IMG/VR virus record: IMGVR_UViG_3300024239_000011
Location: 80,303 to 144,302 of that record
Direction: 5' to 3' (one strand)
Length of the DNA stretch: 64,000 nucleotides
Source of the DNA: a virus
Part shown: piece after piece, positions 5,228 through 63,056 of the stretch
How the letters are laid out: every line of letters begins with the position of its first letter
Numbering within the stretch: the stretch's first letter is position 1
The notes under the pieces: generated by a model
The model's database searches: none
What the model saw: the letters and a program-made list of their open reading frames with translations, nothing else
Told to the model about the DNA's origin: nothing
Translations under genes and position numbers: made by a program

Positions 5228-6781
5228 TTACCAGTGTGCCAAGATCAGCGGCGTGTCTTGATAAGACTGCCAAATTCGTTCGGTGATATATGGCATCATC
5301 GGATGTGCCAGACGTAGGCATTGATCGAGGCACCGCATAATCGTTCCCAATGCATCCATGTCGTTCTGATCGTACAAACGATCCTTGGACGCCTCGATGT
5401 ACCAATCGCAGAACTCGTGTTTGAAGAACAATCGGAACGCATCCGCCGCTGCTCGGTAATCAAATGCATCCAGGGCATTTGCCATAGTACGTTTTGTTTG
5501 ATCGAGTGATGCGAGGATACGCAGATCATCAGGATGTTGAGACTCGTTCCAGGCAGATGGACGACCCATCCGGTCGAAATGACTGAGACAGAACCGCGAG
5601 GCTTGCCACAGTTTGTTTGCGAACCGTTTTGCAGAATCGAAAATATCGTTCGACAATCGGATATCCTGCCCGGCGGTACCGTTCTCCAAGAACCCGAACC
5701 GCAAAGCGTCACATCCGAATTTTTCGATGATTAGCAGAGGATCAATGCCGTTTCCCTTCGACTTACACATTTTTTCCCCATTGGCGTCACGAATGATGCC
5801 GTGGAGATAGATGGTGTCAAATGCCATCTGATCGGTCAGGGCAAGCCCCATCATCAACATACGGGCACACCAGAAGAATAGGATGTCCGCTGCCGTCTCG
5901 ATCATACTCGCCGGGTAGAAAGTTCGCAGATCGGGCGTGTCGTTTGGCCAGCCCAAAATGGCGAAGGGCCAAATTGCGGACGAGAACCATGTATCAAGGA
6001 CATCGTGATCTTGTCGGATGTCATCCCCCAGAATAGCTCTGGCATCCGCCTCTGTACGTGCCGCGCAAAAAGCACCAGAACCGTTGTACCAAATCGGGAT
6101 ACGGTGTCCCCACCAAATCTGACGCGAAATACACCACGGCTCGATGTTTTCGAGGAAATGACAGAAGGTTTTCCCTTCATATTCCGGGATAATCTTTAGT
6201 TCACCCGCATGATAACGTGCAAGAAGGTCGGTAGCCAGTTGACTAGTGTCCAACCACCACTGCCCATCCTGACGGTAAATCAATCCTTTTTCGAAACACC
6301 GGTTGAACGCCTCTAGGGTGGCGGTGGGATGTTCGGGGCTAAGCGTATACCATTCGCGCGACCAATCACAGCTTGCGCCCAGACGGCGAATTTGCTGGGT
6401 GATGCGCCCACCCGTCGTTTTCTGCCATGCATCTGCTTTGGCAAAATACTGGTCACGGGTTGGTTCGGTAATCCCTTCGGCGGCAAGCTCAGCCTTAATC
6501 TTAGCATCGGTTGCCAAACCCGCATGATCAGTACCGGGCTGCCATAGTGCATTAAAGCCCTGCATGCGCTTGTACCGGATCGTCGTATCCTGAAGGGTGG
6601 TGAAAAGTGCATGCCCCATGTGCAGTTGCCCAGTGATATTGGGCGGCGGCATTGGGATGTTGAAGGCTGGTGCCTCTGGGTTCATGCTTGGCTTAAAAAA
6701 GCCATTATTTTCCCAATGCGCGTAGATGTTCGGTTCTTCGGTTTTATAGTCGAAGTTCCGAGTTAGTTTGTTACGTCCCAC
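5228..6781 (-). CDS. valS: valyl-tRNA synthetase-like class Ia aaRS catalytic core, lacking CP1 editing domain and C-terminal domains
   Basis: HIGH motif PPPNITGQLHMGHA, WQPGTDHAGLAT, ISRQIWWGHRIPIWY, KMSKS-like KMCKSKGNG, start of anticodon-binding helix GCDALRF...NKLWQASRF. Only ~290 aa separate HIGH from KMSKS (ValRS normally ~500), so the editing domain is absent. Confidence 0.85.
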   Translation of the reverse strand: MGRNKLTRNFDYKTEEPNIYAHWENNGFFKPSMNPEAPAFNIPMPPPNITGQLHMGHALFTTLQDTTIRYKRMQGFNALWQPGTDHAGLATDAKIKAELAAEGITEPTRDQYFAKADAWQKTTGGRITQQIRRLGASCDWSREWYTLSPEHPTATLEAFNRCFEKGLIYRQDGQWWLDTSQLATDLLARYHAGELKIIPEYEGKTFCHFLENIEPWCISRQIWWGHRIPIWYNGSGAFCAARTEADARAILGDDIRQDHDVLDTWFSSAIWPFAILGWPNDTPDLRTFYPASMIETAADILFFWCARMLMMGLALTDQMAFDTIYLHGIIRDANGEKMCKSKGNGIDPLLIIEKFGCDALRFGFLENGTAGQDIRLSNDIFDSAKRFANKLWQASRFCLSHFDRMGRPSAWNESQHPDDLRILASLDQTKRTMANALDAFDYRAAADAFRLFFKHEFCDWYIEASKDRLYDQNDMDALGTIMRCLDQCLRLAHPMMPYITERIWQSYQDTPLILAHW

Positions 6782-7764: not shown

Positions 7765-8370
7765 TCATTTCCACTGGGTGCGGCGCTGCTGCTTCCAATT
7801 CTTCTGCGGGCGCCGCCAGTAATCATCCCAGACAGTCGGCAGGCACGCCTTGCGACGACGACCACGAGCCTTGATTCGATATTCGACCGCATCTTCATCG
7901 TAGTTCAGGAAATCGTTCTCACGAATCTCCTGGGTCGTTGCCATGTGACGAAGCGACTGGCACTTCCAGTGACGGCGGCAACGGATGCCCTTGACCGGAC
8001 CATTCCGGAAATCCGTCTCCGGATCGTAGTTAAAACGGGACCACTGCGTGCGGTTCGGGCACCCAAGCTGGAAAAACCGTTCCACAATGGTTTCCGGCGC
8101 AATCACCAGCCCCAATTCATCCAGAAGGACAAACTGCCCGCGCGTCCACGACGCCGGTTCCAGGGAGCTACGAATGTACGCCATCCGCGCAACACGGACG
8201 ATCTCACGATGAAACGTGGGTTCGTCCATCAAGGAAGTCTTAACCACCCCATTGTAGGCAATATAAATGAATGGACGACTTGCCCGAGATTTCAGGAAAG
8301 CATCCAAACTTTCATAGACCCACGTTTCCTTGCTGTGGATGTCCTTGAGAGTGACTTCATACTTGTACAT
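7765..8370 (-). CDS. hypothetical protein, paralog of 8585..9169, basic W/R/K-rich C-terminal tail
   Basis: shared block RENDFLNYDEDA.EY.I.ARG...WDD....KNWK.QR.T.W. Confidence 0.6.
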   Translation of the reverse strand: MYKYEVTLKDIHSKETWVYESLDAFLKSRASRPFIYIAYNGVVKTSLMDEPTFHREIVRVARMAYIRSSLEPASWTRGQFVLLDELGLVIAPETIVERFFQLGCPNRTQWSRFNYDPETDFRNGPVKGIRCRRHWKCQSLRHMATTQEIRENDFLNYDEDAVEYRIKARGRRRKACLPTVWDDYWRRPQKNWKQQRRTQWK

Positions 8371-8454
8371 ATTGGTTCTCCTTTAACGCTAATTGCGTTA
8401 ACGGAAACCCAAATATTCCTCGCGAATAACGTACATTTTATTCTCCGACGTTGA

Positions 8455-8522
8455 TGGACGCTGCCGGATTTGAACCGCGCTCGGCTCCGTCGAGCCTATC
8501 CCAGTTGGTCAAATACCCGTCC
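8455..8522 (-). tRNA. degenerate tRNA-like sequence (68 nt)
   Basis: minus-strand T arm GCGG-TTCAAAT-CCGG, partial acceptor pairing GGACG/CGTCC, hairpin GCTCG-ACGGAGC-CGAGC; no canonical D arm or variable loop. Confidence 0.3.
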
Positions 8523-8537
8523 AGGGCGCCCCATAGA

Positions 8538-8612
8538 TGGTGGAGCGCGTGGGGATCGAACCCACTGACCAGCGCCCTAAGTTGTTAACGCCAGCGGGTT
8601 TTCCGCTGACGC
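8538..8612 (-). other. tRNA 3'-half-like fragment
   Basis: canonical T arm GTGGG-TTCGATC-CCCAC plus acceptor 3' strand GCGCTCC-A-CCA, but no matching 5' acceptor strand found. Confidence 0.3.
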
Positions 8613-9169
8613 TTCCAGTTTTTTTCGTGGTGGCGACGCTGAGCGAAATCGTCCCAGGTGTCGGGTAATTCCTTATAGCGGCTACCACGTGCCCGAATAT
8701 GGTACTCTCGGGCATCTTCATCGTAGTTCAGGAAATCGTTTTCACGATGCTCCTGGGTGGTGCGGATGCCCTGGCAGAAACGACCATGGCGCTTGTGAAC
8801 GCCGGGCACCGGACCACACCGGAAATTCTTGGCGTAGGTCCAACCCTTCTTGCGCATCCACTCAGTTTCAACAAGTTCGTGGGTCAGGTGCCCATGATAC
8901 AGGGCGACCCACAGCACGGCTTCCGGCTGAATGATGTGCGCACCGGTCTGATCACACAGGTACCAACCATCACGCTGCTCGGTATAATCCTCGAAGCTGC
9001 TCAAACCGCACTGCGGCTTGTCCAGCATGTCGCGATACACATACCGATACTGGGTCTGGTTAAAAAAATCCTGAAACGAATCGAAACTGGCTTGGTAGTA
9101 GCAGATTTCGTAAACGCCGCGCCACCGGCTCCAATAAATTTGCTTCAGGATGACAGGTCCGTTGTACAT
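8585..9169 (-). CDS. hypothetical protein, paralog of 7765..8370
   Basis: shared C-terminal block and basic tail. Confidence 0.6.
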   Translation of the reverse strand: MYNGPVILKQIYWSRWRGVYEICYYQASFDSFQDFFNQTQYRYVYRDMLDKPQCGLSSFEDYTEQRDGWYLCDQTGAHIIQPEAVLWVALYHGHLTHELVETEWMRKKGWTYAKNFRCGPVPGVHKRHGRFCQGIRTTQEHRENDFLNYDEDAREYHIRARGSRYKELPDTWDDFAQRRHHEKNWKRQRKTRWR

Positions 9170-9815: not shown

Positions 9816-10505
9816 ATAGCCTGCCAGGGAATTTCTTCCCCAGCGGCGTTGTTCTCGATACCCTCTTCCCGATTACTCGGTATCCCCTGTCCCAGGTAGA
9901 TCGCTTTCGCGACGGGCGCTGGCTATTGGGTTTCCCCTCAACCGACCAGTCCAGCGTAAGGTGCTTCGTTTTGACTCAACTGCGTCCAGTTTCCTAGCAC
10001 AGTCCCTAAGGACATCGCAGCGGAGTGCATCTATTTATACATCCACCCACGATGGGTCAATTTCAACAGTCGGTGCCTTTCCTTAGCTCATCGGGGTCGG
10101 AAATCAAAACTTTCGTTCTGCAAACTGTCGTGTTGAAGGGATGCCAGACTCCCTTCCGCCAACCAACGGGAACTATATCTGACCGTCACCCCGTTTATGC
10201 TCTTGCGTTTTATCCCGCATCGGTTCTGCGGTAGATGATATTTAGTCCTTACGACTTGGCCTCATCCAGCGGCGCTCGCCCGAACCTGATCCACTTTACC
10301 GTGAACTTCATCTTTAACGACCGCTAGGCGCCCGAGCGGTCGGGCACCTGTGGTATACGCGGGGTGCCGCCACGATCAAGCCCAGCAGAATACCCGTCAT
10401 CGTCTGGACGGGCACAGAATGACGAACACCAAGCGCGATTGCTTCCGGGTCACCACCACGACAGGGTTTAACAAGAAACCACGTCGTGTGTCTATTTATA
10501 TTTGG

Positions 10506-10579
10506 TGGTCCCGACTGGACTCGAACCAGCGCAAACCTACCTTCGGAGGGTAGTGCTCTTCCAACTGAGCTACGGGACC
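10506..10579 (-). tRNA. tRNA-Arg(CCG)
   Basis: acceptor GGTCCCG/CGGGACC, anticodon arm CTACC-CTCCGAA-GGTAG, TTCGAGT T-loop, CCA. Confidence 0.8.
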
Positions 10580-11438: not shown

Positions 11439-11511
11439 TGGAGCGGGTGAAGGGGATCGAACCCTCGTCCTCAGAATGGGAATCTGATGCACTACCACTG
11501 TGCTACACCCG
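11439..11511 (-). tRNA. tRNA-Gly(CCC)
   Basis: acceptor GCGGGTG/CACCCGC, anticodon arm TCAGA-TTCCCAT-TCTGA, T arm GAGGG-TTCGATC-CCCTT, CCA. Confidence 0.7.
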
Positions 11512-12021: not shown

Positions 12022-13308
12022 ATGGGCATTAAAGTGTATAATACTACTTTAGGTGGGATTAATTTTAAAACACCAACCACGTTGAGTGACCCATACTTAC
12101 AAAATGTTGTCCTTCATATTGATAGTAGTTTGCCTCAATTATCAGACAAAACAGGAAAAATATTTACTAAATATGGCACTGCTTCATCTGGAAATTCGGG
12201 GTTTAATGCTGCCTATTTTGATGCAAATACTTATTGGGAAATAGACTCCATTTACGATTGGGGTCTTTCAGATTTCACGTTTGAATACGAAATATATCAC
12301 AATGCCACACCTACCACTGGTGGTATTTTCGGCTATCGTGCATCATCAACCGATAATTTTTCAGTATATTATGGTTGGCCAACCACAGGCTATCATATGA
12401 TATTAAATGATGTTGAATTAATAGGAACAACAGCGGTTCCGCCGGTTGGGCAATTTCAACATTATGCATGGTGCCGTAAGGGTAATACGTTAACTCTATA
12501 TATCGATGGTGTGCTTATAACCACAAAATCATTTACAGGCTCATTAACAAAAAACTTACCAAAAATGTTTTTAGGTTGGATCAATTTTGGAAGCGCATTT
12601 AATGGTATGATAAGAAATTTCACATTCACCAAATCATGCCGTTACCTTTCTAATTTCACGCCATCAAATTTGGATAGAAATCAACTCAACGACCCGTTAT
12701 GGAATTCGGTGGTATTTCATATACCCGCTTCTGGATCAAATGGGTCATTGCTTAAAAATACAAAAACTAATAATACATTAGTACGACATGGCACCTCTGC
12801 TATTATCAATAGCATTTTTACCAAAAATACAGTGTATGCAAATGGTGGTTACTACAGTACCCCAGGATCAATTGATTTTCAATTTGGACGTGATGATTTC
12901 ACTATTGAAATGTGGGGGTATGATTTAACTCGCTCAGCAGAAGCACCGTGGATCAGTACCGGATGGGTCAATACCAATTCATGGGTAATTCATCCACAGC
13001 ATTCCAGTCATAATTTTTCATTTTGGTCACAAGCATACGGAACAACCAATCCAATCGTTAAAGGACCAGCATTGCCACTACGCGAATGGGTTCATGTTGC
13101 CATATCAAGACAAGCAGGAACTACCCGGTTGTTCAATAATGGAACACTTGTTGCAACAAGTACGGTCAATTATAATATAACCAACCCAACCCTATTACCA
13201 TTCGAAATCGGGCACGAAAGTCCATTAACAAGAACCGTCAATGGATGGTATGCTGATATTCGAATTACCAAAGGCGTATCAAGATATAATCAATCATTTA
13301 CCGTTTGA
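12022..13308 (+). CDS. tandem LamG/concanavalin-A-like lectin-fold protein (possible receptor-binding or adhesin)
   Basis: two repeats each with W..VA.SR..GT..LY.NG pattern; AGGAG RBS; strongly AT-rich compared with neighbours. Confidence 0.7.
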   Translation: MGIKVYNTTLGGINFKTPTTLSDPYLQNVVLHIDSSLPQLSDKTGKIFTKYGTASSGNSGFNAAYFDANTYWEIDSIYDWGLSDFTFEYEIYHNATPTTGGIFGYRASSTDNFSVYYGWPTTGYHMILNDVELIGTTAVPPVGQFQHYAWCRKGNTLTLYIDGVLITTKSFTGSLTKNLPKMFLGWINFGSAFNGMIRNFTFTKSCRYLSNFTPSNLDRNQLNDPLWNSVVFHIPASGSNGSLLKNTKTNNTLVRHGTSAIINSIFTKNTVYANGGYYSTPGSIDFQFGRDDFTIEMWGYDLTRSAEAPWISTGWVNTNSWVIHPQHSSHNFSFWSQAYGTTNPIVKGPALPLREWVHVAISRQAGTTRLFNNGTLVATSTVNYNITNPTLLPFEIGHESPLTRTVNGWYADIRITKGVSRYNQSFTV

Positions 13309-16193: not shown

Positions 16194-16353
16194 CTACAGG
16201 ATCAAATTTCTATACTTCCACTCCGTTATTTGGTATGGTCGAAGCCTTGGCGGCTACCGCCAAGGACATCTACTCCCAGTTGACCGGGTTTGAAGACCCC
16301 GCAGCTATTTCCGCTTTCTTCGACGGACAGCGCGTCGGTCCTGCCAACTAAAT

Positions 16354-16428
16354 TGGCGCGGGTACGGAGGATCGAACTCCGACTCCTTGGTTGGGAACCA
16401 AGTAGACACCCCAGTATCTTATACCCGC
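16354..16428 (-). tRNA. tRNA-Gly(CCC)
   Basis: acceptor GCGGGTA/TACCCGC, anticodon arm CTTGG-TTCCCAA-CCAAG, T-loop TTCGATC; same backbone as the duplicated Gly(GCC) genes. Confidence 0.7.
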
Positions 16429-16471
16429 AAATACAAAATGGGTGGGCAATGCCCACCCATTTGTTGTACTA

Positions 16472-16555: not shown

Positions 16556-16638
16556 GGTGCGGCTGAAGGGAATCGAACCCCCATTTTCAACATCCTTTAC
16601 CGTTCCACCGATTCGAAGTCGGGGCGGGTTACAACCGC
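16556..16638 (-). tRNA. 83-nt tRNA-like, internal structure unresolved
   Basis: acceptor GCGGTTG/CAGCCGC+A+CCA, T arm GGGGG-TTCGATT-CCCTT, hairpin CCGA-CTTCGAA-TCGG; no clear D arm. Confidence 0.35.
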
Positions 16639-16642
16639 AGGA

Positions 16643-17436: not shown

Positions 17437-17702
17437 ATGCAGTCCCTCAAAATCATTGATGTGACAATTTTATTTATCACGTAACGATTTTGAGTTCCGC
17501 CTACCACAGTGCGCGTACTCAGCGCATGTCGTGAATTTGGAAACAATGGAGCCAGCAACACCGGGCACCAACCACACATACATTCCGATGTTCACAGACG
17601 CCAGCAAAGCGCAACTGATGCGTAAACTGCTGCTCAAGGCAAATCCCGATGGGAAATTTGCGGTCGCTACTGTTCGTGGCATGAAGCTGCACTTTGAGTA
17701 AA

Positions 17703-17777
17703 TGGCGCGGGTACGGAGAATCGAACTCCGACTCCTTGAGTGGCGCTCAAGTAGACACCCCAGTATCTTATACCCGC
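17703..17777 (-). tRNA. tRNA-Gly(GCC), copy 1 of perfect duplicate
   Basis: GCGGGTATAAGATACTGGGGTGTCTACTTGAGCGCCACTCAAGGAGTCGGAGTTCGATTCTCCGTACCCGCGCCA; identical to 22389..22463. Confidence 0.7.
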
Positions 17778-17855
17778 ATAGAAACGTGCGAGCCTACTGC
17801 GGTGAAGTGGCGGCTGAAGCCCACTCAACGATATAATCGTTGCCGCTTTCCTCAT

Positions 17856-17940: not shown

Positions 17941-18029
17941 TGGCACGGGTGTGAGGAATTGAACCCCTTCGGCATCCACCTGAATTTTTGTGCCACTGGG
18001 TTTGGAATCCAGCTTCAGGAAACACCCGC
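17941..18029 (-). tRNA. 89-nt long tRNA-like, anticodon unresolved
   Basis: acceptor GCGGGTG/CACCCGT (G1:U72), T arm AGGGG-TTCAATT-CCTCA, CCA; internal arms could not be resolved by hand. Confidence 0.4.
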
Positions 18030-18033
18030 GTAA

Positions 18034-18110: not shown

Positions 18111-18183
18111 TGGTGGAGTAAACGCGAATCGAACGCGCCGCAACCGCATTGCGAATGCAGTTCGCCCCCTTGGTCATGCTACC
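18111..18183 (-). tRNA. tRNA-Ala(CGC) candidate
   Basis: acceptor GGGGTAG/TTACTCC with G3:U70, anticodon arm CTGCA-TTCGCAA-TGCGG, T arm GCGCG-TTCGATT-CGCGT; weak D arm. Confidence 0.45.
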
Positions 18184-18246
18184 CCAATGTGATTAATTGT
18201 GGTTGATCCACTAGAGTGATATTATCCTCATCCGAAAGGGGAGGAC

Positions 18247-18614: not shown

Positions 18615-18706
18615 TGGCTCCCACTTGAGGTTTCGAACCTCACCCCGCATCGCTGCGAGACTTCCGGTTAACAGCCGGATACCTTCACCAAGCCGGTCCA
18701 GTGGGA
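18615..18706 (-). tRNA. type II (long variable arm) tRNA, anticodon GTT (Asn codons), G73
   Basis: acceptor TCCCACT/AGTGGGA, D ACC/GGT, perfect anticodon arm TCCGG-CTGTTAA-CCGGA, variable arm with CGCA/TGCG hairpin, T arm TGAGG-TTCGAAA-CCTCA, CCA. Confidence 0.55.
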
Positions 18707-19272
18707 ATGAATTCATTCTGAAGTTTCTGCCATCGCTTACGGACGGCGGCTTCAGAAACACCTAACATATCTCCAATTTGCATAAATGTTTTTGTCTTAC
18801 GCAATTCGATAAGATCAACCGTTTCCCAGCGAACTTTTCCATGCAGCGAACCGGCGCATTTCCACGAACAAGTCAAATTGGTTGTTGGTTTTGATTGCCC
18901 GCAAACAGGGCATTCATCGGTGGGAACACTGGTACGGTGGGTTTTGTACTCTGCAAATTGTTCATTAAATGATGGTGCTGTGCTAGGAACCTCAATCAAC
19001 CCATCGTGTATCTCAGCATGGCAACGATTGCATACCAAAACACACTTCCGTAATTCTTCAACAATAGCCGACCACGATTGCGGGTTCGCACGAATTGCAC
19101 CAAAATGAAATTCTTTTTGTGACGGATCACGGTGGTGGAAATCAAACGCCCGCAACGAGCGACTGTAACCACAAACACAACATTCTCCACCAAAGGCATC
19201 AACCATTCTTTGCTTAGTACGTTCGCGCCAGCGCCGAACTGCTTCACTTCCTCTTGACATCCAACACCTCAT
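18685..19272 (-). CDS. HNH endonuclease with C-terminal sigma-70 region-4-like HTH
   Basis: CxxC pairs, H..H, C-terminal TFMQIGDMLGVSEAAVRKRW. Confidence 0.7.
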   Translation of the reverse strand: MRCWMSRGSEAVRRWRERTKQRMVDAFGGECCVCGYSRSLRAFDFHHRDPSQKEFHFGAIRANPQSWSAIVEELRKCVLVCNRCHAEIHDGLIEVPSTAPSFNEQFAEYKTHRTSVPTDECPVCGQSKPTTNLTCSWKCAGSLHGKVRWETVDLIELRKTKTFMQIGDMLGVSEAAVRKRWQKLQNEFIPTGPAW

Positions 19273-19320: not shown

Positions 19321-19410
19321 TGGAGGACACGGTGGGAATTGAACCCACGAGGGGCTTTCGCCCGTGCGATTAAAAGTCGCATGTTCTCAACCAACAAGAA
19401 CGTCGTGTCC
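19321..19410 (-). tRNA. type II tRNA, anticodon TTT (Lys codons), U73
   Basis: acceptor GGACACG/CGTGTCC, D GTTC/GAAC, anticodon arm TGCGA-CTTTTAA-TCGCA, variable arm GGGC-GAAA-GCCC, T arm GTGGG-TTCAATT-CCCAC. Confidence 0.55.
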
Positions 19411-19418
19411 ATAAGAGT

Positions 19419-19504
19419 TGGAGGACCGGTGGGGAATCGAACCCCTTATCGCACGGTTTAAAAGACCGCTGCCCCCACCAGGGTGGCTGTAACGTTCCCG
19501 GTCC
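19419..19504 (-). tRNA. 86-nt tRNA-like with enlarged D region; hairpin loop CTTTTAA
   Basis: acceptor GGACCGG/CCGGTCC+T+CCA, hairpin GCGGT-CTTTTAA-ACCGT, T GGGG-TTCGATT-CCCC; ~28 nt between acceptor and this hairpin. Confidence 0.4.
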
Positions 19505-19569: not shown

Positions 19570-19654
19570 TGGAGCGGGTAGGGGGAATCGAACCCCTTTC
19601 CAGTTAAGGGCTTGCTTGGAAGGCAAGTGAGCAATCCATTGCTCGACTACCCGC
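19570..19654 (-). tRNA. type II tRNA, anticodon TCC (Gly codons), U73
   Basis: acceptor GCGGGTA/TACCCGC, D GAGC/GCTC, anticodon arm CTTGC-CTTCCAA-GCAAG, variable hairpin CCCTT/AAGGG, T-loop TTCGATT. Confidence 0.5.
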
Positions 19655-19666
19655 ATATTGTGATGT

Positions 19667-19754
19667 TGGAGACGCGAGTGGGAGTCGAACCCACCTGACC
19701 TTTCGGTACAAACGGTTTTGCAGACCGCCGACTAAACCGCTCATCCATCGCGCC
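19667..19754 (-). tRNA. type II tRNA, anticodon GCA (Cys codons), U73
   Basis: acceptor GGCGCGA/TCGCGTC (G2:U71), anticodon arm GCGGT-CTGCAAA-ACCGT, variable ACC-GAAA-GGT, T arm GTGGG-TTCGACT-CCCAC. Confidence 0.5.
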
Positions 19755-19946
19755 CGTTTAAATTGGTTGCTGGATGCACCCTCTCACATCCCGGTCGAGC
19801 GTCCACGACCTTTCAGATCAAGTAACGACACCGCTTATCGGGGTCCAGCACTCCCGACTCACCGTTGCATGCCGATAACCCCATGTCGTCGGGGTCGTCA
19901 GCAGGGGCTTCGGTGAGGGTAGGCGATAGGTGAACATCGCCTATCT

Positions 19947-20028: not shown

Positions 20029-20102
20029 TGGTAGTCCCTGGCGGAATCGAACCACCATCAAACGCTTATCGGGCGCTCGCACTACCGTTGTGCTAAGGGA
20101 CT
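20029..20102 (-). tRNA. tRNA-Ile(GAT)-like with C33
   Basis: acceptor AGTCCCT/AGGGACT, anticodon arm AGCGC-CCGATAA-GCGTT, T arm GGTGG-TTCGATT-CCGCC; paralog of 23869. Confidence 0.45.
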
Positions 20103-20152
20103 AAAAGGATACGGTCGCAACAGGTAGGAATCGAACCTTTCCAGACCAAGGA

Positions 20153-20178
20153 TTATCAACACCGATTTCTGTTGATAA
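20153..20178. repeat. 9-bp perfect inverted repeat between two tRNA-like T-arm fragments
   Basis: TTATCAACA-ccgatttc-TGTTGATAA. Confidence 0.6.
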
Positions 20179-20365
20179 CGAAGGGGATCGAACCCTTCAT
20201 CTACCGGCATGCCTTTACAGGGTGGTACCCGACCAGGGCTGTTACTTACCTTGACACCTCCGACATTGCTCCCTCCCCGACATCCGGAGTAGGAGAGTTC
20301 ACGCCGTTTTCGGTGCTTCGGTCAACGGTTGACCCCGGCATCAATCTCCACTATCCTACTCGCGG

Positions 20366-20484
20366 TCTGCTGTAGGATCAGTTGGTAGAGAGAACCACCC
20401 CTCGTGAGGCGTAAGCCTCCCGGTGAAGGACCGTAATGCCGGGGATAATGGTTGGCCGTGGGTTCGAGTCCCACCAGCAGACCA
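20366..20484 (+). tRNA. plus-strand oversized tRNA-like (~117 nt)
   Basis: perfect acceptor TCTGCTG/CAGCAGA, D-loop-like AGTTGGTAGAG, canonical T arm GTGGG-TTCGAGT-CCCAC then CCA; ~42 extra nt between D region and T arm. Confidence 0.4.
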
Positions 20485-20500
20485 CTTTAGATGTTAACAT

Positions 20501-20575
20501 TGGTGGGTCTGGGTGGGATCGAACCACCTCTCTTCGGCGTGTCATACCGACGCTTTCCCAATAAGCTACAGACCC
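20501..20575 (-). tRNA. tRNA-Val(GAC)
   Basis: acceptor GGGTCTG/CAGACCC, anticodon arm TCGGT-ATGACAC-GCCGA, T arm GGTGG-TTCGATC-CCACC, CCA. Confidence 0.65.
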
Positions 20576-20757: not shown

Positions 20758-20834
20758 TGGTAGGTCTTCCGCGAATCGAACGCGGTCAATAACACCATGT
20801 CACGGTGTTGCCTTCCCATCTGGCTCAAGACCTA
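20758..20834 (-). tRNA. tRNA-Val(GAC)
   Basis: acceptor AGGTCTT/AAGACCT, anticodon arm ACACC-GTGACAT-GGTGT, T arm CCGCG-TTCGATT-CGCGG; overlaps 3' end of HNH ORF. Confidence 0.65.
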
Positions 20835-21423
20835 TTGAACGTTTGGTAGTTGGTGTCGTGAGCCAATCACCAAAAACACCAGCCACCCTAATTTCACGTA
20901 TCTTATCGACTAACAAAAACCACGCTTCATATGGCATGTCGCGGCGTAATAAATTGCACCTAATACAACAAGCAACCACATTATCCATTGTGTGACCAAT
21001 GCTATTATTCTTTCGGTCAACTGTCATGGTTATTGTCGTCTCACCACAATACGAACAACCATTTGCAATCAATTCATCAACGAACTTAATAGAAAGGTCG
21101 TTTTCCAATCCTCGTTTGCGGTCAGACTTGCGCGAATCTTCAACAATGTATTTTGCACGATTGATACCGTGTTGACGTTCAAATTTTATTTTTGCTTGTT
21201 TCTTCTCTTCACGCCGTTTTCGGGAATCTAAGGTTTCGTATGTTCTGGCACGTGATTGATCACATTTCCGGCAATACACCTTCGGGTATCTTCTTCCTTT
21301 TACGGTTCGCATACCAAATGAAGTGATCGGCAATACTTCTCCGCAACTCGAACATATTTTAGTCTCACACATTTTTAACCTCTTTTGGTACTCGGGGATT
21401 ATGTATTTATCACCGAGTACCAA
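20800..21423 (-). CDS. HNH homing endonuclease
   Basis: CxxC Zn fingers; VDRKNNSIGHTMDNVVACCIRCN HNH core; C-terminus runs into tRNA-Val. Confidence 0.65.
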   Translation of the reverse strand: MVLGDKYIIPEYQKRLKMCETKICSSCGEVLPITSFGMRTVKGRRYPKVYCRKCDQSRARTYETLDSRKRREEKKQAKIKFERQHGINRAKYIVEDSRKSDRKRGLENDLSIKFVDELIANGCSYCGETTITMTVDRKNNSIGHTMDNVVACCIRCNLLRRDMPYEAWFLLVDKIREIRVAGVFGDWLTTPTTKRSIGLEPDGKATP

Positions 21424-21636: not shown

Positions 21637-22425
21637 ATGCTAAATACTTGCATGGAACCAAACATTATAAATGAAATACGGTCGAAGCGACGTGATGGAT
21701 ATAGTCTTCAGTGGCTATCTCGTGAATATAATGTCGCAGTTGGCACCATACGATACCATACTAAGGGCATCCTTGTTAATAAAACCCCACATACATTGAT
21801 ACAAGAGAAGCCAATCATCGTACCAATACCATCCGAGGATTGGGCATATTTTTGGGGATTTTATACTGGGGATGGTTGTTTAACGCAAATGACAAGAAGT
21901 TATTCAATAAGTATTTCCTGTGACATCAAGTATGAATATTTGATTGCGAATTATAGTGCTATTCTTTCTGATTTATTCAGACGCGAAGCAAAAATTTACA
22001 AAACCAAACGGAATTGTGCAATCGTTCGTATTCACGGGGTTGACCTACCCAACATTCTTCAGCTACCACCGGGGGCGAAAACTGAAGAGTATAAAGTCCC
22101 AGAGTGGATATTTTCAGATAGAAAATACGCAGTTCAATTTCTAAAAGGTCTTATAGAAACTGACGGAAGTTGTTACCGACGAGATATAACACAATATGGT
22201 GTCATGTTCACTCAAAAAAACAAAACGATATTCGACTATTACAGCACCGCAATGTCTCTTTGTGATTACTCATTTACCAAGAGTAAAGGTAATGCTTACC
22301 AAGCACAGACATCAACCAAAAACGGTGCAAAGGAAATGATTGATGAATTAAGGCTTCATCAAAAGATGCGAACATATTCAAGAAAAAATGGCGCGGGTAC
22401 GGAGAATCGAACTCCGACTCCTTGA
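21637..22425 (+). CDS. LAGLIDADG homing endonuclease
   Basis: two LAGLIDADG motifs (FWGFYTGDGCL and FLKGLIETDGS); AT-rich; 3' end overlaps the duplicated tRNA-Gly(GCC) copy. Confidence 0.8.
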   Translation: MLNTCMEPNIINEIRSKRRDGYSLQWLSREYNVAVGTIRYHTKGILVNKTPHTLIQEKPIIVPIPSEDWAYFWGFYTGDGCLTQMTRSYSISISCDIKYEYLIANYSAILSDLFRREAKIYKTKRNCAIVRIHGVDLPNILQLPPGAKTEEYKVPEWIFSDRKYAVQFLKGLIETDGSCYRRDITQYGVMFTQKNKTIFDYYSTAMSLCDYSFTKSKGNAYQAQTSTKNGAKEMIDELRLHQKMRTYSRKNGAGTENRTPTP

Positions 22426-22463
22426 GTGGCGCTCAAGTAGACACCCCAGTATCTTATACCCGC
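22389..22463 (-). tRNA. tRNA-Gly(GCC), copy 2 of perfect duplicate
   Basis: 75/75 identical to 17703..17777. Confidence 0.7.
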
Positions 22464-22481
22464 ATTGTGTTGGTGTAGAAA

Positions 22482-23320: not shown

Positions 23321-23409
23321 TGGAGAACCGGGTGGGAATCGAACCCACGACGGGCTTTCGCCAGCAGTTTAAGAGACTGTTCCTACCAACCAACAGTAGG
23401 CTCCGGTTC
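23321..23409 (-). tRNA. type II tRNA, anticodon CTT (Lys codons), U73
   Basis: acceptor GAACCGG/CCGGTTC, D CCTA/TAGG, anticodon loop CTCTTAA, variable GGC-GAAA-GCC, T arm GTGGG-TTCGATT-CCCAC; paralog of 19321. Confidence 0.55.
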
Positions 23410-28990: not shown

Positions 28991-30246
28991 TAGATTTCCA
29001 CGGCGTGAGATTACCGCCATGAAGGATGGGTCTTTGGAACCGTACCGCGTAGCTTGCGACCAGCGTTAATTCCTAACATCCATGGGCTTTTGACCCATAT
29101 CCCACCAGAGCCGCTTTTTTTAGCGAGTAGCTTATCTCGCGTCGTTGGTGATTACTCGGTGTCTCTTCCACAGAGATAGGTCAGCTAAACCCACCAATGC
29201 AGCGCCCACACCAAACTGCTTCGCTTTGCGGGCTAGGCAGCACCTCCTTCCTTACGGGGAGGCGTTAGGCTCCTTCTCATCACCAACCGGGACAGGCTTT
29301 TGCGTTTTTGCATATCAAAGCCATGATTGATGCCGGATTCTCACCCGGCGGGCACCCTATCAGTGACGTGCTGTCCCAGTCCCTCCATGAGTTTTTGACC
29401 CACAGAATTATAGACACGCCACGTACTTTTCTGCTTGCAAGCATACTCAGCGGTTTTTCAAGTTCCAGTCCCCACGGGCATTACGCTTAGGGTCCAGCAA
29501 CTTTCAAACTGTCTTTCGCCCTTGGCTGCGAACCTCGGACTACGGCAGTAATGTACCATATTACCAGTCTCGGCACCACCCGTTAGCTGGAACATCCTCA
29601 TTGGGTTGGTAGCCCTCCGAAGATGTTGTCTATGACACAAAACGTCCACAGACTATCCCTTAGTCTTCCACTTGGACTGGTTTTGCCATGGAGGGGTTCG
29701 TCACCCTCTTCCCTGATCGCCCTTTCTGTTCTCACCTCTCGGCGGAACTCGGATTGAACAGAGTTCGTTCCCATGCCGTCGTCAGTTTTATTCACCGCCT
29801 GCTCTCGCAACCGATGACCACCCTCTCGGGTGAGACTGGGACTTGCTTAGATGAACCGTATTGCTACGGCGGGGTTATCGTAGGGATTTCCGCCTTTACA
29901 CGAGTTGCCTCGTGCTATTCTTATGGACGCCAAGCCGCCCAATCTATCGATTAACAAATTCAAAGAGCAAGCTGAGTTAATCTACCCAGCTAAACCAGCC
30001 TTTCGACCGGCGAGGCACGGTTTATACCGTTCCTCTTTTTCTTCGTCAACAACTATTTTCGTTCGTCGCGATTTTTATTTCGCTTCGTCCCGAGCGTTCG
30101 TTGTCGCCGTCGAAGTGAGGTGTTTATATCTTTCCTCATGGGAACCGTCAACACCTTTTTCCATAATAATGCGATTTTTATCCGGTCGTATTGACCGTTT
30201 GGTTTTACAACGCTACAATGTATTGAAACTATACAAGGTTTATATC

Positions 30247-33545: not shown

Positions 33546-33971
33546 TTACCCCAACATACGCAGGATAAACGGAACGCTTGGGTCACGAACTTCAATGATT
33601 GCGTTCCACGGCACGAATACCGAAGTTGCAACCCCACTGAAGTAAATTACCACCGTGAACCCTTCATCAGAAATTTCCAGATCATGGAACTGGTTCTGAA
33701 GCACGATGACAGTTTCCCCACGCAAATGAAGGGGGAACCCCGATACCCCGAAAATCGTGGTATCGAGGGTGATGTAGAAATGGTGTCCGTGATCATCAAC
33801 ATTAGGATCATCACGGAAATTGGATAAGACCTCACGAATCATCCGAATGTTTGCAAGATGGTGTTCTCGCCGGAAGATACCGTCGTAATCAAATGCAGTG
33901 GGACTGTTCCCGGTCGCCGCTGATTTGTCTACCTGGGATTTTTTACCAGGGAAATGAATTACGTTTGTCAT
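33546..33971 (-). CDS. sspB: SspB-like (ClpXP adaptor fold) protein
   Basis: GETVIVLQNQFHDLEISDEGFTVVIYFSGV...VFVPWNAIIEV parallels the SspB core; ATGA overlap with upstream NTase gene. Confidence 0.5.
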   Translation of the reverse strand: MTNVIHFPGKKSQVDKSAATGNSPTAFDYDGIFRREHHLANIRMIREVLSNFRDDPNVDDHGHHFYITLDTTIFGVSGFPLHLRGETVIVLQNQFHDLEISDEGFTVVIYFSGVATSVFVPWNAIIEVRDPSVPFILRMLG

Positions 33972-35137
33972 CAGTCAATCAACTGGATTGTTTTCGAGGA
34001 TGGCTTGGGCTTGATCTTGGTAGGTTCCAAATCTTTTTCGGAGGGGTCTACCACACGGGTCACCAGGGCACGCTTGAGACGGACGACGCCACCTTCTTCA
34101 AGGATGATGTCGTTAACACATCCCGGCTTCAATTCAATTACTACAGCCTTGTCGCGATAGGTGCAATAATCAAACGCCTGTTTAATCGTCTGCTTGGCGT
34201 AGATGTATGGGTCACCAGACTGCACGTATTCACCAACTACATACTTAAATGTTGGTTTGTACATCGAGACTAGCTCATCGCCATTACGATAGACCTTCTT
34301 GAAGAACACACGATCCTTAAAGATTTCACCAACATCAACCATCTTACCATTTACTGGGCGGCAAGGAACCGGCTCATAGTCATCGCTATCCGTATAGACC
34401 CGTGCATAGAACTTTCCGTTCAGTTGATAATACTCGATCTCACGTTTACCAACTGCGAGAATGACTTCTTCTGCGCTCCCTACAGGGGATTTAGTCGGAA
34501 AAGTCAGACGGTCGTTCATTGCAGCAAACATGTTCTCTATTGAGAACGGGGTATCTTCAGGTACCCGCACCGCCTCGCCGTAAATACCGCCAATCTGATC
34601 AACCAGTTCATCCCATGAATTGATTGGTTTCAGCGCACAAGCCGCCAGGATTTTGAAGTTCTCAAACTTACCAATGGTGTATCCACGTTCCTTGTACTTG
34701 TTTACACGCCATGCGGACGCATACGGGAACCGTGTCTTCGGGTTAAAACGAAGAACTCGCTGACAGCAATCTTCCAAAAAATCGTCGTGGAGAACGAATT
34801 TCTTGGTATCAACGTCATATGCCCCCATGCACACCGTAAAGTCGAAACATTCAAAAATTTTCTCAGCAGTTTCGAACGTATCAAAATGCATGATTTGGAT
34901 CGGGATATCATCGCCCTGCACAAATGTCACGGCACGTTCCGAAACATCGGCACAAAAGTACCCGCTCTCGAACATCAAATGTACTAAATCCTCAAACGCC
35001 GCTTCCGTTTTCGGATATACATCGATGTCGTTGATTGGTTTGTTCGTATATATGGAGGTAATTGAGCCACCCGCAATAAAGCAATCTTTGGCTTCCTTGG
35101 GGAGATACCCGGCTATCATCGTTGCCTTTGTCATCAC
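33971..35137 (-). CDS. tRNA nucleotidyltransferase / poly(A) polymerase family (Pol-beta superfamily) enzyme
   Basis: head-domain motifs GGS-x12-DIDVY and FECFDFTVCMGAYDV (RRDFTINA-like) then RVLRF. Confidence 0.65.
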   Translation of the reverse strand: MMTKATMIAGYLPKEAKDCFIAGGSITSIYTNKPINDIDVYPKTEAAFEDLVHLMFESGYFCADVSERAVTFVQGDDIPIQIMHFDTFETAEKIFECFDFTVCMGAYDVDTKKFVLHDDFLEDCCQRVLRFNPKTRFPYASAWRVNKYKERGYTIGKFENFKILAACALKPINSWDELVDQIGGIYGEAVRVPEDTPFSIENMFAAMNDRLTFPTKSPVGSAEEVILAVGKREIEYYQLNGKFYARVYTDSDDYEPVPCRPVNGKMVDVGEIFKDRVFFKKVYRNGDELVSMYKPTFKYVVGEYVQSGDPYIYAKQTIKQAFDYCTYRDKAVVIELKPGCVNDIILEEGGVVRLKRALVTRVVDPSEKDLEPTKIKPKPSSKTIQLID

Positions 35138-35673: not shown

Positions 35674-36234
35674 ATGTTGATCATGCTACTAGTGACGTGG
35701 CGCGATGATGACGCGGTGGAGCGTCAGGCAAAAACTCTATTACATCCACGTGGATGGTTTGTCGCAGAGACGTATACACCAGACGAGGATGAGGATGATG
35801 GAACCACGCTATTCCGCATTGAACCGTTCGTCGGACAACGAACAACTGAAATCCCGGACAAGCTTTATCACGCCACCCCTGCACAAAATGTCCCGCGCAT
35901 TCTCAAGCAAGGGCTGATCCCACAACGGGGAAAGCACACCGGAATGTTCGCGGCTACACCAAACCGAATCTATATCGCCAAATCACTTGCCTACGCCGTT
36001 GATATCAAGAATATGCTTCAGAAGCACGATGGCTACAGACAAGACTACGCGATCATCGAGATCGATACGACGAAACTCCGGAAGGGGACGAAATTCTATA
36101 TCGACCCGCAATACCATTCTGGCGTCTACACGACCACGCCTGTTCCACCCGCCGCGTTGCGCGTACTCGGCAATGAGGAAGTGGAACAGTGTCCGGAACC
36201 GGATTTCGACTACGAACTAGCGATGAATGTCTAA
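35674..36234 (+). CDS. kptA: RNA 2'-phosphotransferase (Tpt1/KptA family) with N-terminal extension
   Basis: KLYHATP...GLIPQRGKHTGMFAA...DYAIIEIDTTKLRKGTKFYIDP..GVYTTTPVPP. Confidence 0.7.
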   Translation: MLIMLLVTWRDDDAVERQAKTLLHPRGWFVAETYTPDEDEDDGTTLFRIEPFVGQRTTEIPDKLYHATPAQNVPRILKQGLIPQRGKHTGMFAATPNRIYIAKSLAYAVDIKNMLQKHDGYRQDYAIIEIDTTKLRKGTKFYIDPQYHSGVYTTTPVPPAALRVLGNEEVEQCPEPDFDYELAMNV

Positions 36235-36334
36235 CAACCGAGCGATATAGCGTTCTGCGATTTGATCATGAAAAAGCCCCTTAATGGTCCAAACCTGCAT
36301 TAGTATTTAGCAAGTTCTCCCATTAAGGGGCTAT

Positions 36335-36629
36335 TGGATCGGGGAGAGGGATTCGAACCCCCATAAAGTGGACCCTTACCACTTCGACTTTCGCCGCCCT
36401 CTTTCGAGGTTTGTGGTCTGGACTTTATCTTCACCATAGCTTGCGCCGTAGGTGCTGCCCGTCAAGTCTCTACACCTTCCGCTCTCGCGGCTTGGCTCGG
36501 GATTGGCATTTTACAGCGTTCCCCGAATTTGAGCAGTTCTACATCAAAGGTTTCCCTTTAAGCATCCGGTTTTCCTCTGTGTGGGAGGAAGGTAAAAACC
36601 ACTGGTCCTACCGTTAGACGATCCCCGAA
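36335..36629 (-). tRNA. tRNA gene (best fit Gln-UUG; Lys-UUU or Pro-UGG possible) interrupted in the anticodon loop by a ~221-nt group I (IC3-type) intron
   Basis: 5' exon 36596..36629 TCGGGGA-TC-GTC-TAACGGTAG-GAC-C-AGTGG-TTTT; 3' exon 36335..36374 GGT-CCACT-TTAT-GGGGG-TTCGAAT-CCCTC-TCCCCGA-T-CCA; intervening RNA contains GGATGCTTAAAGGGAAACC, AATCCCGAGCCAAGCCG, GGAAGGTGTAGAGACTTGACGGG and AAGATAAAGTCC, matching the conserved core of cyanobacterial/plastid tRNA-Leu(UAA) group I introns as I recall them. Confidence 0.55.
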
Positions 36630-36678
36630 TAGCGGTGGGAGGTATTTAGCAAAACCCCAACCCCACCGCAATAACTTT

Positions 36679-62093: not shown

Positions 62094-63056
62094 ATGCGCA
62101 TCAAAGAAATCCTCGAAGATACATCCACATCACCATGGTACTTTGTCATTTCCAAGGATGGTATGGCCAAGGTATTCAATGAAGATGATCCCGAATACCT
62201 GAAGCATATCTGTGATCTGGGCTGGGAAGTTGAATGGGATAGCGCCCGTAGTCCCGAGCAAGGATACCGTTTTGCCCGTGAACATGGATTGAAACCTGTT
62301 GGTCAAAAAGAAAGCCCGCTTGACAATCCGAACTTCCGTAAATGGTTCGCAGGCAGTAAGGTTGTAGACAAGAACGGTAATCCGCTTGTCGCCTACCATG
62401 GCACGTCCCAGGATTTTGAGGCATTCAGTGTGAAACCCACCAAGAACGTTGGTCGTTATGGTTTCAACCGTATTGGGTTCTGGTTTGATACCGACCCCAC
62501 TACCCCTAATTATTTCGCGGGCGATGATGGCGATAGTATTGAAGGGCGTCAGGGTGGTGGAAACGTTATGCCGTGTTACCTGTCGATCAAACACCCATTG
62601 GTTATTACCAGTGAGGCTTTAAGCGCACGAATGGAAGCACAGCTTCGTGATCTGTGGGCACAACATAAGGCGCTCTGGCAGAAATACAACACCGAACGTA
62701 AGGCGACCCCCACTTACGATGATAACCTTCATCGAAAATATAGTGCCCTGTCCAAGAAAATCATGGCTGAAATTGAAGATATCAAAGCTCGGCGCGGGTC
62801 GGATTCTTTCTATAAACTCATGAGCCTACTTCCCCATGGACCAAAGACCAAGGATGCCGATGTTGACCAATTTGTGGCTGACGCGAAAGCCGAGGGATAT
62901 GACGGCATTCTGCTCAAGGATACCCTGGCAGATGACGGCTCCCGTGGTGGGAAGCTGACTGACTGGTGGTTGCCTTTCGACCCCCACCAGATCAAGTCAG
63001 TGTTCAATAAGGGCACGTGGAGTACGGAGACGCCCAAGCTCTCCGAAGGGGCTTAA
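62094..63056 (+). CDS. putative ADP-ribosyltransferase-fold protein (H-G-T class candidate)
   Basis: LVAYHGTSQDFEAF then GRYGF; assignment tentative. Confidence 0.4.
   Translation: MRIKEILEDTSTSPWYFVISKDGMAKVFNEDDPEYLKHICDLGWEVEWDSARSPEQGYRFAREHGLKPVGQKESPLDNPNFRKWFAGSKVVDKNGNPLVAYHGTSQDFEAFSVKPTKNVGRYGFNRIGFWFDTDPTTPNYFAGDDGDSIEGRQGGGNVMPCYLSIKHPLVITSEALSARMEAQLRDLWAQHKALWQKYNTERKATPTYDDNLHRKYSALSKKIMAEIEDIKARRGSDSFYKLMSLLPHGPKTKDADVDQFVADAKAEGYDGILLKDTLADDGSRGGKLTDWWLPFDPHQIKSVFNKGTWSTETPKLSEGA

Follow-up and report, generated by a model that had tools for sequence, protein, structure and literature searches.

An insert-bearing tRNA-like gene in a probably rearranged segment of a huge-phage tRNA array

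Does a disordered segment within a phage tRNA array consist of decayed tRNA genes, of an unrecognized structured RNA, or of the products of rearrangement driven by endonucleases? The question is raised by a stretch of viral DNA of 64,000 nucleotides (nt) (IMG/VR record IMGVR_UViG_3300024239_000011, positions 80,303 to 144,302; hereafter the window). An initial annotation, made without database searches, had described there two T arms without acceptor strands, a palindrome, a long-range complementarity, and an overlong tRNA-like gene on the plus strand, and had offered these three explanations side by side. We analyzed the interval 20103-20500 of the window and propose that it is a mosaic of duplication, inversion, and decay around one conserved tRNA-like gene with an insert, a reading to which we give about an even chance of being correct. 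Among the insert-bearing tRNAs of large phages, which are poorly understood, the plus-strand gene represents a new variant, and it belongs to a small conserved family with a histidine-type G-1:C73 pair.

The plus-strand gene

The gene, its parts, and the site upstream are as follows (MFE, minimum free energy).

20364-20484, plus strand: tRNA-shaped gene with an anticodon-loop insert (Rfam tRNA model, ARAGORN after removal of the insert, homologue L044)
20398-20448, plus strand: 51-nt insert forming a predicted three-way junction (MFE fold, RNAalifold on two homologues)
20398-20401 and 20441-20444, plus strand: helix P1, CCCC/GGGG (MFE fold and RNAalifold)
20406-20419, plus strand: hairpin A, GAGGC-GUAA-GCCUC (MFE fold and RNAalifold)
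20421-20433, plus strand: hairpin B, CGGU-GAAGG-ACCG, that is CGGUGAAGGACCG (MFE fold and RNAalifold)
20434-20440 and 20445-20448, plus strand: joiner UAAUGCC and bulge AUAA, respectively (MFE fold)
20329-20357, plus strand: sigma-70-like promoter match, TTGACC-17 nt-TATCCT, with a predicted start near 20364, the first G of the gene

The Rfam tRNA model (RF00005) aligned with positions 20366-20482 of the plus strand, with 51 nt replacing the 7-nt anticodon loop. The score was 26.0 bits, below the gathering score of 29 bits, and ARAGORN at default settings made no call with the insert present; the gene is therefore not a canonical tRNA gene. It was the sole plus-strand tRNA-like unit, as initially annotated, against 39 tRNAs called by ARAGORN and about 45 at the Rfam level on the minus strand. 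The perfect acceptor and T arms and the enlarged body that had been reported were confirmed, and the enlargement lay at the anticodon loop, where 51 nt were present.

The acceptor stem (20364-20372 with 20475-20483, GGUCUGCUG/CAGCAGACC) comprised 9 bp without a mismatch, which, read as a tRNA, corresponds to a 7-bp stem, the pair G-1:C73, and one extra G-C pair. The T arm (20458-20474, GUGGG-UUCGAGU-CCCAC) was canonical, with 5 of 5 stem pairs, and a helix directly above the insert (helix I, AACCA/UGGUU, 20393-20397 with 20449-20453) was likewise complete (5 of 5). The D arm (20376-20391) had a canonical loop, AGUUGGUA, and Watson-Crick pairs at two of the four stem positions; all helices of the gene except the D stem were perfect. 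The nucleotides expected to make tertiary contacts were canonical as read from the sequence (U8, A14, G15:C48, G18G19, U54U55C56, and A58). No CCA was encoded (3' end, A72-C-CAC), unlike in the neighboring tRNAs, and the fold-energy z-score was unremarkable (-1.64).

The promoter-like site at 20329-20357 may serve the gene, being suggestive by its position alone. Sigma-70-like sites occurred at chance frequency in a 4-kb scan (6 found, 5.6 expected), and the candidate -10 hexamer, TATCCT, falls within an inverted copy of the D-arm segment (see below).

A homologue in an unrelated viral contig

Viral contigs were searched with a loose pattern consisting of hairpin B, AAU, and the T loop. This search recovered a homologue at 12345-12467 (minus strand) of an unrelated 47-kb viral contig (L044). 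There, the element stands second in a small operon, behind a tRNA-Thr(UGU), and it has a canonical D arm, the pair G-1:C73, and an encoded CCA followed by a U-run. The two genes were about 70% identical. Hairpin B showed no difference over its 13 positions, and the joiner had the consensus (U/A)AAUGC(C/U). Double changes that kept the pairing were found at seven pairs, namely five of seven in the acceptor stem, one in the T stem, and one in P1 (C-G to U-A). When pairing was scored over the two sequences, 88.6% of the cells were paired, compared with 28 to 48% when the partners were slid. With no structure supplied, RNAalifold recovered the acceptor stem, P1, hairpin A, hairpin B, and the T arm. 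Given that the surrounding stems have changed while hairpin B and the joiner stayed nearly the same, the gene appears to represent a lineage under RNA constraint, not debris, on the thin basis of two sequences.

Further members were sought in several collections. In the 417 kb of phage loci that were fetched, the two-sequence model, R2, recognized no additional member; the ordinary tRNA of the window that it scored best was the tRNA-Arg(CCG) at 10503-10579 (43.4 bits). Two contigs (L045 and L058) have a 9-bp GG..CC acceptor stem and a CGGU/ACCG helix followed by AAAUGCU; together with L043, they are distant look-alikes only. Exact and patterned scans of viral contigs for the element or its flanking tRNAs, which were stricter than the hairpin-B pattern, gave no homologue. 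Nothing similar was found in 185,000 prokaryotic genomes, where three chance matches lay inside coding sequence, and no similar element was found in GenBank phages. A pattern scan of metagenome contigs gave one match, which was unrelated.

Intervening sequence or permanent module

After deletion of the insert in silico, default ARAGORN called a 74-nt tRNA. Its anticodon was GAU (Ile), CAU (Met), or CCU (Arg) depending on the cut chosen, with C33 every time. U33 is nearly universal in tRNA anticodon loops. On L044, ARAGORN called a tRNA-Arg(CCG) with the loop CUC-CGAA and a closing helix, AGCAA/AUGCU, that is not kept in the window copy; P1 is the sole insert-closing helix common to both. Three readings are allowed. 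The insert could be an intervening sequence with unfixed boundaries, it could be a permanent module replacing the anticodon arm, or the window copy could be an eroding duplicate. We lean slightly toward an intervening sequence over a permanent module, and slightly also toward the window copy being an eroding copy of an insert-bearing gene. The latter leaning follows from the weak D stem, the missing CCA, and C33 in all possible spliced loops, as well as from an orientation opposite to that of the other tRNA genes and from the intact tRNA-Arg(CCG) elsewhere in the array. A Tpt1-like open reading frame (ORF) at 35674-36234 was considered as a possible connection to tRNA splicing and dropped, as its Pfam score (22 bits) was below the cutoff, its NCBIfam score was 19 against a cutoff of 239, and PDB gave no match.

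Short inserts other than group I introns have been reported in phage tRNA genes; to our knowledge, they have never been explained, and we know of no bacterial or phage pathway for their removal. The tRNA introns of Lak megaphages are conserved and have been called "enigmatic" (Devoto et al. 2019, PMC6784885). Insert-bearing tRNA-Ala(UGC) and tRNA-Asn(GUU) genes were found in a 522-kb phage (L036, 9775-9921 and 19458-19582), and an insert-bearing tRNA-Asn(GUU) was found in a further contig (L032, 7631-7754). Their structured inserts, of about 50 to 71 nt, lie at 35/36 and start with GGG(A/C)A, and their removal leaves perfect stems and canonical loops. The layout of the Asn insert of L036, one closing helix with two short hairpins, is that of the window insert. 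The plus gene is like the intron-bearing tRNA genes of Lak megaphages in being overlong, in having an anticodon-loop insert that is not of group I, in being recognized as a tRNA after its removal, and in an insert sequence kept between genomes. It differs in that removal gives U33 and a purine at 37 in L036 and L032, whereas the window gene always has C33. Similarity between the window insert and those of L036 and L032 was also undetectable by a single-sequence covariance model, R1.

Overlong tRNAs were also widespread in many IMG/VR gut-virus contigs (L006 to L026). These tRNAs, of 116 to 128 nt and several per contig, scored 45 to 53 bits with the Rfam tRNA model and carry inserts of 43 to 60 nt near positions 26 to 29 or in the anticodon loop, with a shared YCUUGU...ACAGCAA (for example, L006 440-563 and 56-172).

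Two known kinds of introns were compared with the insert. Group I introns may also lie inside the anticodon loop, and the window has a genuine example at 36395-36598 (52 bits), within a tRNA gene at 36330-36640 (minus strand) with the acceptor UCGGGGA/UCCCCGA, a T arm at 36346-36362, and a loop side UUUUUA (Lys-UUU-like). However, the insert has 51 nt, whereas the smallest group I introns have at least about 200 nt, and the group I model (RF00028) had no match in the interval. Archaeal introns of the bulge-helix-bulge (BHB) type resemble the insert in being short and structured, in the 4-bp CCCC/GGGG helix under an anticodon-type stem, and in a 3'-strand bulge. Inspection of the fold showed the 4-bp helix of a BHB motif and not its two 3-nt bulges: the 3' bulge has 4 nt instead of 3, the 5' side is a three-way junction, and cuts at BHB positions would give a nonsensical loop. 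In addition, we know of no splicing endonuclease of this kind in bacterial hosts.

The minus strand between 20103 and 20363

The elements found between the tRNA-Ile(GAU) gene and the plus gene are the following.

20180-20198, minus strand: orphan T arm 1, GAAGGG-UUCGAUC-CCCUUC (T-arm census)
20124-20140, minus strand: degenerate T arm 2, AAAGG-UUCGAUU-CCUAC, with 3 of 5 pairs (T-arm census)
20152-20179, minus strand: 10-bp hairpin (palindrome plus a terminal G-U pair) with an 8-nt loop, immediately following T arm 1
20287-20294, plus strand: GAGTAGGA, a further copy, GTAGGA(G)AGTT, of the D-arm segment, complementary to TCCTACTC
20319-20359, minus strand: putative inverted partial copies of the plus gene (model R1, local alignments)

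The two T arms had been described as lacking an acceptor 5' strand. This held, as no convincing partner was found at tRNA distance; when G-U pairs were allowed, partners with 6 or 7 of 7 pairs were numerous throughout the upstream 200 nt, as expected by chance. The core of T arm 1 (20181-20197, AAGGG-TTCGATC-CCCTT) has 5 of 5 stem pairs, extendable to 6 bp, and agrees at 17 of 17 nt with the tRNA-Gly(CCC) T arm (11449-11465). T arm 2, with the sequence preceding it, resembles the variable region and T arm of tRNA-Gly(UCC), and the same region resembles GAUAAUGGUUGGCC plus the T arm (score 23), which lie toward the 3' end of the plus gene. T arm 2 is preceded by CCUU-GGUCUGGA-AAGG (20136-20151, minus strand), for which a D-arm-like fold is possible. 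In the fold, CUACCUGU (20120-20127) is able to pair with GCCGGUAG (20201-20208), closing a four-way junction. ARAGORN at normal thresholds found no tRNA on the minus strand of 20103-20363. At low thresholds, it proposed a tRNA-Gly(ACC) with a 101-nt intron and a tRNA-Asp(AUC), both rejected for their poor stems.

The palindrome proved exact (TTATCAACA, 20153-20161; TGTTGATAA, 20170-20178). By itself, a 9-bp hairpin is unremarkable, as 96 inverted repeats of this length or longer, each within 40 nt, occur in the window; its position is more notable, because the 5' arm starts right where T arm 1 stops. No U-run follows the 10-bp hairpin on either strand, and an intrinsic terminator was therefore discarded. 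A role of TTATCAACA as a DnaA box was also discarded, sites with one mismatch being only mildly overrepresented (30 observed, 19 expected).

The long-range complementarity was present as well, between GAGTAGGA (20287-20294) and TCCTACTC (20354-20361), and an 8-bp complement within 170 nt is about the chance level by itself. It would result from inverted GTAGGA copies of the D-arm segment of the plus gene. On the minus strand, GTAGGAT-AG-TGG-AGA (20359-20345) matches the D arm of that gene, and TTGATGCCGGGGTCAACCGTTGACCG (20344-20319) matches its segment UAAUGCC-GGGG-AUAA-UGGUU-GGCCG; within 20341-20319, AUGCCGGGG..GUUGACCG match at 19 of 23 positions. Model R1 gave its second match at 20319-20359 (13.3 bits, E value of 0.74). 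The case for inverted partial copies of the plus gene is marginal, and it is mainly their collinearity that speaks for them.

Covariance-model scans and folding had been suggested as checks. The scans returned the plus element as a subthreshold tRNA and recognized no family on the minus strand: Rfam gave no match there, including at E values up to 10 in a 206-nt search, other than tRNA-Sec at 12.5 bits. The fold of the 267-nt minus-strand transcript was unremarkable (z-score, -1.20), although the four-way junction can be folded at 20116-20211. A spacer paralogy between 20196-20366 and 19755-19946 was rejected (score 21, shuffle maximum 23). None of the features first annotated in the interval is statistically striking singly.

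The surrounding array

The window is part of a huge-phage-like genome and holds 39 tRNA genes according to ARAGORN, all on the minus strand; Rfam adds several tRNAs at or below its threshold. At least nine ORFs resembling HNH or LAGLIDADG homing endonucleases are interspersed among them. The interval is bounded and flanked as follows.

20029-20102, minus strand: tRNA-Ile(GAU), bounding the interval 20103-20500
20501-20575: tRNA-Val(GAC), bounding the interval at the other end
18685-19272 and 20800-21312: two endonuclease-like ORFs, flanking the interval

The tRNA-Ile(GAU) has a high score, yet it has C33 (loop CCGAUAA). Searches anchored on proteins recovered contigs of the same phage, one in Logan (L001, 100% identical) and one in JGI (L033, 1 mismatch in 8,493). 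The other hits of these searches were endonuclease relatives of at most 50% identity in unrelated arrays, and no diverged relative of the locus 20103-20500 was found in the collections searched.

Other irregular tRNA pieces occur in the array. In the T-arm census, 11 of the 47 T-arm-like motifs of the window were orphans outside called tRNAs. Two 80-nt tRNA-Gly(CCC)-like copies (17700-17779 and 22386-22465, minus strand) are 100% identical to each other and 90% identical to 16350-16429. Each has a 6-bp anticodon stem and a 5-nt loop (CGCCA), with the remaining stems and CCA intact, adjoins an endonuclease ORF, and is called by neither ARAGORN nor Rfam. At 18111-18195 (minus strand), an orphan T arm occurs with an alanine-type acceptor, GGGGUAG/UUACUCC (G3:U70), and A-CCA, without a D or anticodon arm (Rfam transfer-messenger RNA [tmRNA] model, 13.9 bits). 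The tRNAs for Lys, Cys, Gly, and Asn do not usually have long variable arms. In the array, tRNAs of these four kinds with a hairpin-forming variable arm, 80 to 94 nt long, were found on the minus strand at 19321-19410, 19422-19499, 19570-19654, and 19667-19754, and further ones at 23321-23409, 857-946, 16558-16639, and 17944-18030. The tRNA-Sec model scored them at 26 to 51 bits, one of them above its threshold.

Besides the tRNAs and the group I intron, the window contains tail and lysis genes. A full-length match to GOLLD RNA (RF02032) lies just outside the array at 29002-29422 (minus strand; 129.7 bits, E value of 6e-34, below the gathering score of 150). A fragment of valyl-tRNA synthetase without the N-terminal part is encoded at 5228-6781 (minus strand). 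The ORF at 33971-35137 (minus strand) is about 31% identical to proteins annotated as Gad2 (anti-Gabija) in SPbeta-like phages, and the one at 62094-63056 (plus strand) has an ADP-ribosyltransferase domain of polyvalent proteins.

A proposed mosaic around a conserved gene, and its alternatives

In the explanation that we prefer, pieces of tRNA genes would have been duplicated, inverted, and allowed to decay within an endonuclease-rich huge-phage tRNA array. The plus gene would have a tRNA-like upper half, with the anticodon loop filled by the 51-nt three-way-junction module. The module would then be cut out, as proposed for the Lak-type short introns, or kept, giving a non-decoding tRNA mimic. 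The minus strand of 20103-20363 would hold no gene, being composed of T-arm pieces that resemble tRNA-Gly together with inverted partial copies of the plus gene, and the palindrome-like and long-range pairings would follow from the mutual complementarity of these pieces. The view of the minus strand as debris is based on the identity of T arm 1 with a tRNA-Gly T arm, the collinear inverted copies, the lack of a matching RNA family, and the ordinary fold stability, and also on the other remnants in the array, that is, the identical 80-nt Gly-like genes and the orphan T arms. Thus, of the explanations first offered, decayed tRNA genes would fit the minus strand, with its Gly-like T arms and inverted copies, and not the plus gene. 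Conversely, an unrecognized structured RNA, or an interrupted tRNA, would fit the plus gene, given L044 and the compensatory changes, and not the minus strand. Endonucleases may have caused the rearrangement, as suggested by the context of HNH and LAGLIDADG ORFs on both sides.

Several observations weigh against this explanation. The family has two members, and the covariation comes from one comparison. No splice frame common to the window copy and L044 would yield one canonical anticodon, helix I of the window copy is missing from L044, and the 64-kb window yielded no splicing enzyme. The similarities of the inverted copies are marginal, with scores of 18 to 23 against a null 95th percentile of 21, and the whole-region gapped alignment was equaled by 10 of 500 shuffles (P of about 0.02). 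Finally, simple decay leaves unexplained why the 10-bp hairpin follows T arm 1 immediately and why 20116-20211 has permuted-tRNA-like dimensions.

The most serious alternative, possible in our judgment if rather doubtful, is that the whole segment is dead, the plus element being a redundant pseudogene of an intron-bearing tRNA of the Arg-CCG type, inverted by rearrangement. Redundancy is suggested by the intact tRNA-Arg(CCG) at 10503-10579, the top match of R2 among the ordinary tRNAs. Relative to L044, the window copy shows two mismatches in the D stem and lacks CCA, and when the frame of L044 is applied to it, the anticodon stem is broken (1 of 5 pairs) and the loop reads ACC-CGUA instead of CUC-CGAA. 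It also stands alone in the opposite orientation and adjoins its own fragments. However, dead sequence would not be expected to keep the acceptor stem (9 of 9), the T arm and helix I (5 of 5 each), P1, and hairpins A and B all perfect, or to keep hairpin B identical to that of L044 at every position although five acceptor pairs were turned over. A promoter-like match placed exactly at the 5' end of the gene also argues against this view, and the JGI and Logan contigs, with 1 mismatch in 8.5 kb, gave no sign of ongoing decay in the population.

We consider it unlikely that the plus gene and L044, perhaps with the look-alikes L045 and L058, form a new class of phage tRNA mimics. Such a mimic would have a histidine-type acceptor end and a normal elbow, and a protein- or RNA-binding module, made up of the CGGU/ACCG helix, the GAAGG loop, and the following AAUGC, would replace the anticodon arm. 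It would be CCA-tailed and possibly aminoacylated, would never decode, and might act as a decoy or tether for, e.g., a Ro60-like protein or a tRNA-targeting defense nuclease.

A relationship to Y RNAs, the tRNA mimics that work with Ro60 (Rsr), seems quite improbable. According to this proposal, 20116-20211 of the minus strand would be a permuted YrlA-type module and the plus gene an unpermuted one, whose insert would offer a Ro60-binding-like strand, GGACCGU/A-AAUGC (compare GGUCCGA of vertebrates and GNCGAAN0-1G of YrlA); L044 reads GGACCGAAAUGC, which can also be compared with the Ro60-binding motif. YrlA genes are known in phages, and GNCGAAN0-1G is their Ro60-binding motif (Chen et al. 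2014, PMC4201824). Like the segment studied here, YrlA RNAs have a tRNA-like domain (T arm, D arm, and acceptor-like stem) fused to a second module and occur in phages beside tRNA arrays, and the order of the minus-strand hairpins is that of a permuted YrlA (PMC4201824). The four-way junction at 20116-20211 fits in order and size, with a 6-bp T arm, a closed 10-bp stem directly after it, and a D-like arm of 4 bp and 8 nt with GG; in the permuted arrangement, the 10-bp hairpin at 20152-20179 would be the closed acceptor stem. Moreover, the closest homologue of a neighboring endonuclease-like ORF (46% identity) lies on a contig with Ro60/TROVE, a tRNA array, and two YrlA matches (37.7 and 43.3 bits), and in viral contig L018 Ro60 stands beside insert-bearing tRNA-like genes. 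On the other hand, the Rfam YrlA model (RF02553) had no match at E values up to 10 in 20095-20300 (the 206-nt search) or in 20300-20500, and its only nearby match was an artifact of tandem tRNA-Ile genes. The minus-strand structure has no canonical D arm (UAGCUCA..GGUAGAGC), and its linkers have 0 and 8 nt instead of 2 and 1. The outer Ro-binding stem is absent, with about 20 nt left before the next tRNA, and the topology of the plus gene, which ends at the acceptor stem, is opposite to that of YrlA. The motif resemblance concerns a few nucleotides judged by eye, and tblastn with a phage Ro60 query found no Ro60 in the 64-kb window or in those parts of L043 and L044 that were fetched.

In the phage contigs L040 (685-4860) and L018 (3880-6440), a Ro60/TROVE gene lies immediately next to YrlA-like RNAs and a tRNA array. 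In L018, the neighbors of Ro60 are tRNA-like genes with inserts of about 55 nt carrying AACUUGUUCC...GGGACUGAUU.

A small or permuted tmRNA-like gene can be set aside as extremely improbable: the Rfam tmRNA model reached 18.6 bits over 20327-20484, T arm 1 with its own closed acceptor hairpin has a layout like that of the probable permuted tmRNA at 8266-8631, and UCUGGA...UUCGA resembles the tmRNA 5' motif, but the scores (18.6 and 10 to 13 bits; models RF00023 and RF04321) are far below the gathering score of 47, the acceptor stems UCUGCUG and UGAUAAU lack G3:U70, there is no tag reading frame and no space for a coding piece, and ARAGORN called no tmRNA at thresholds of 70 to 80% and a meaningless one at 50%. 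No significant paralogy was found between the interval and the tmRNA-like locus at 8330-8640. The latter locus (8266-8631, minus strand) is itself a probable permuted two-piece tmRNA, with a T arm, GCGCUCC-A-CCA, 5 nt, GGGGCGC, and G3:U70; ARAGORN called it only at the 70% threshold (tag ENQYVQV*), and the Rfam tmRNA_permuted model gave 21.6 bits.

Implications for phage tRNA arrays

Hairpin B and the joiner of the insert are far better conserved than the tRNA stems around them. This conservation would speak against junk and for a specific partner, which could be a splicing factor or else a protein that binds the insert. If the insert is removed, a new route of tRNA splicing would operate in phage-infected bacteria; if it is kept, the gene would represent a further class of phage tRNA mimics beside tmRNA and Y RNAs. 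The debris on the minus strand would reflect fast reshuffling of tRNA arrays crowded with endonucleases, which is relevant to how "tRNA" genes are counted in huge phages.

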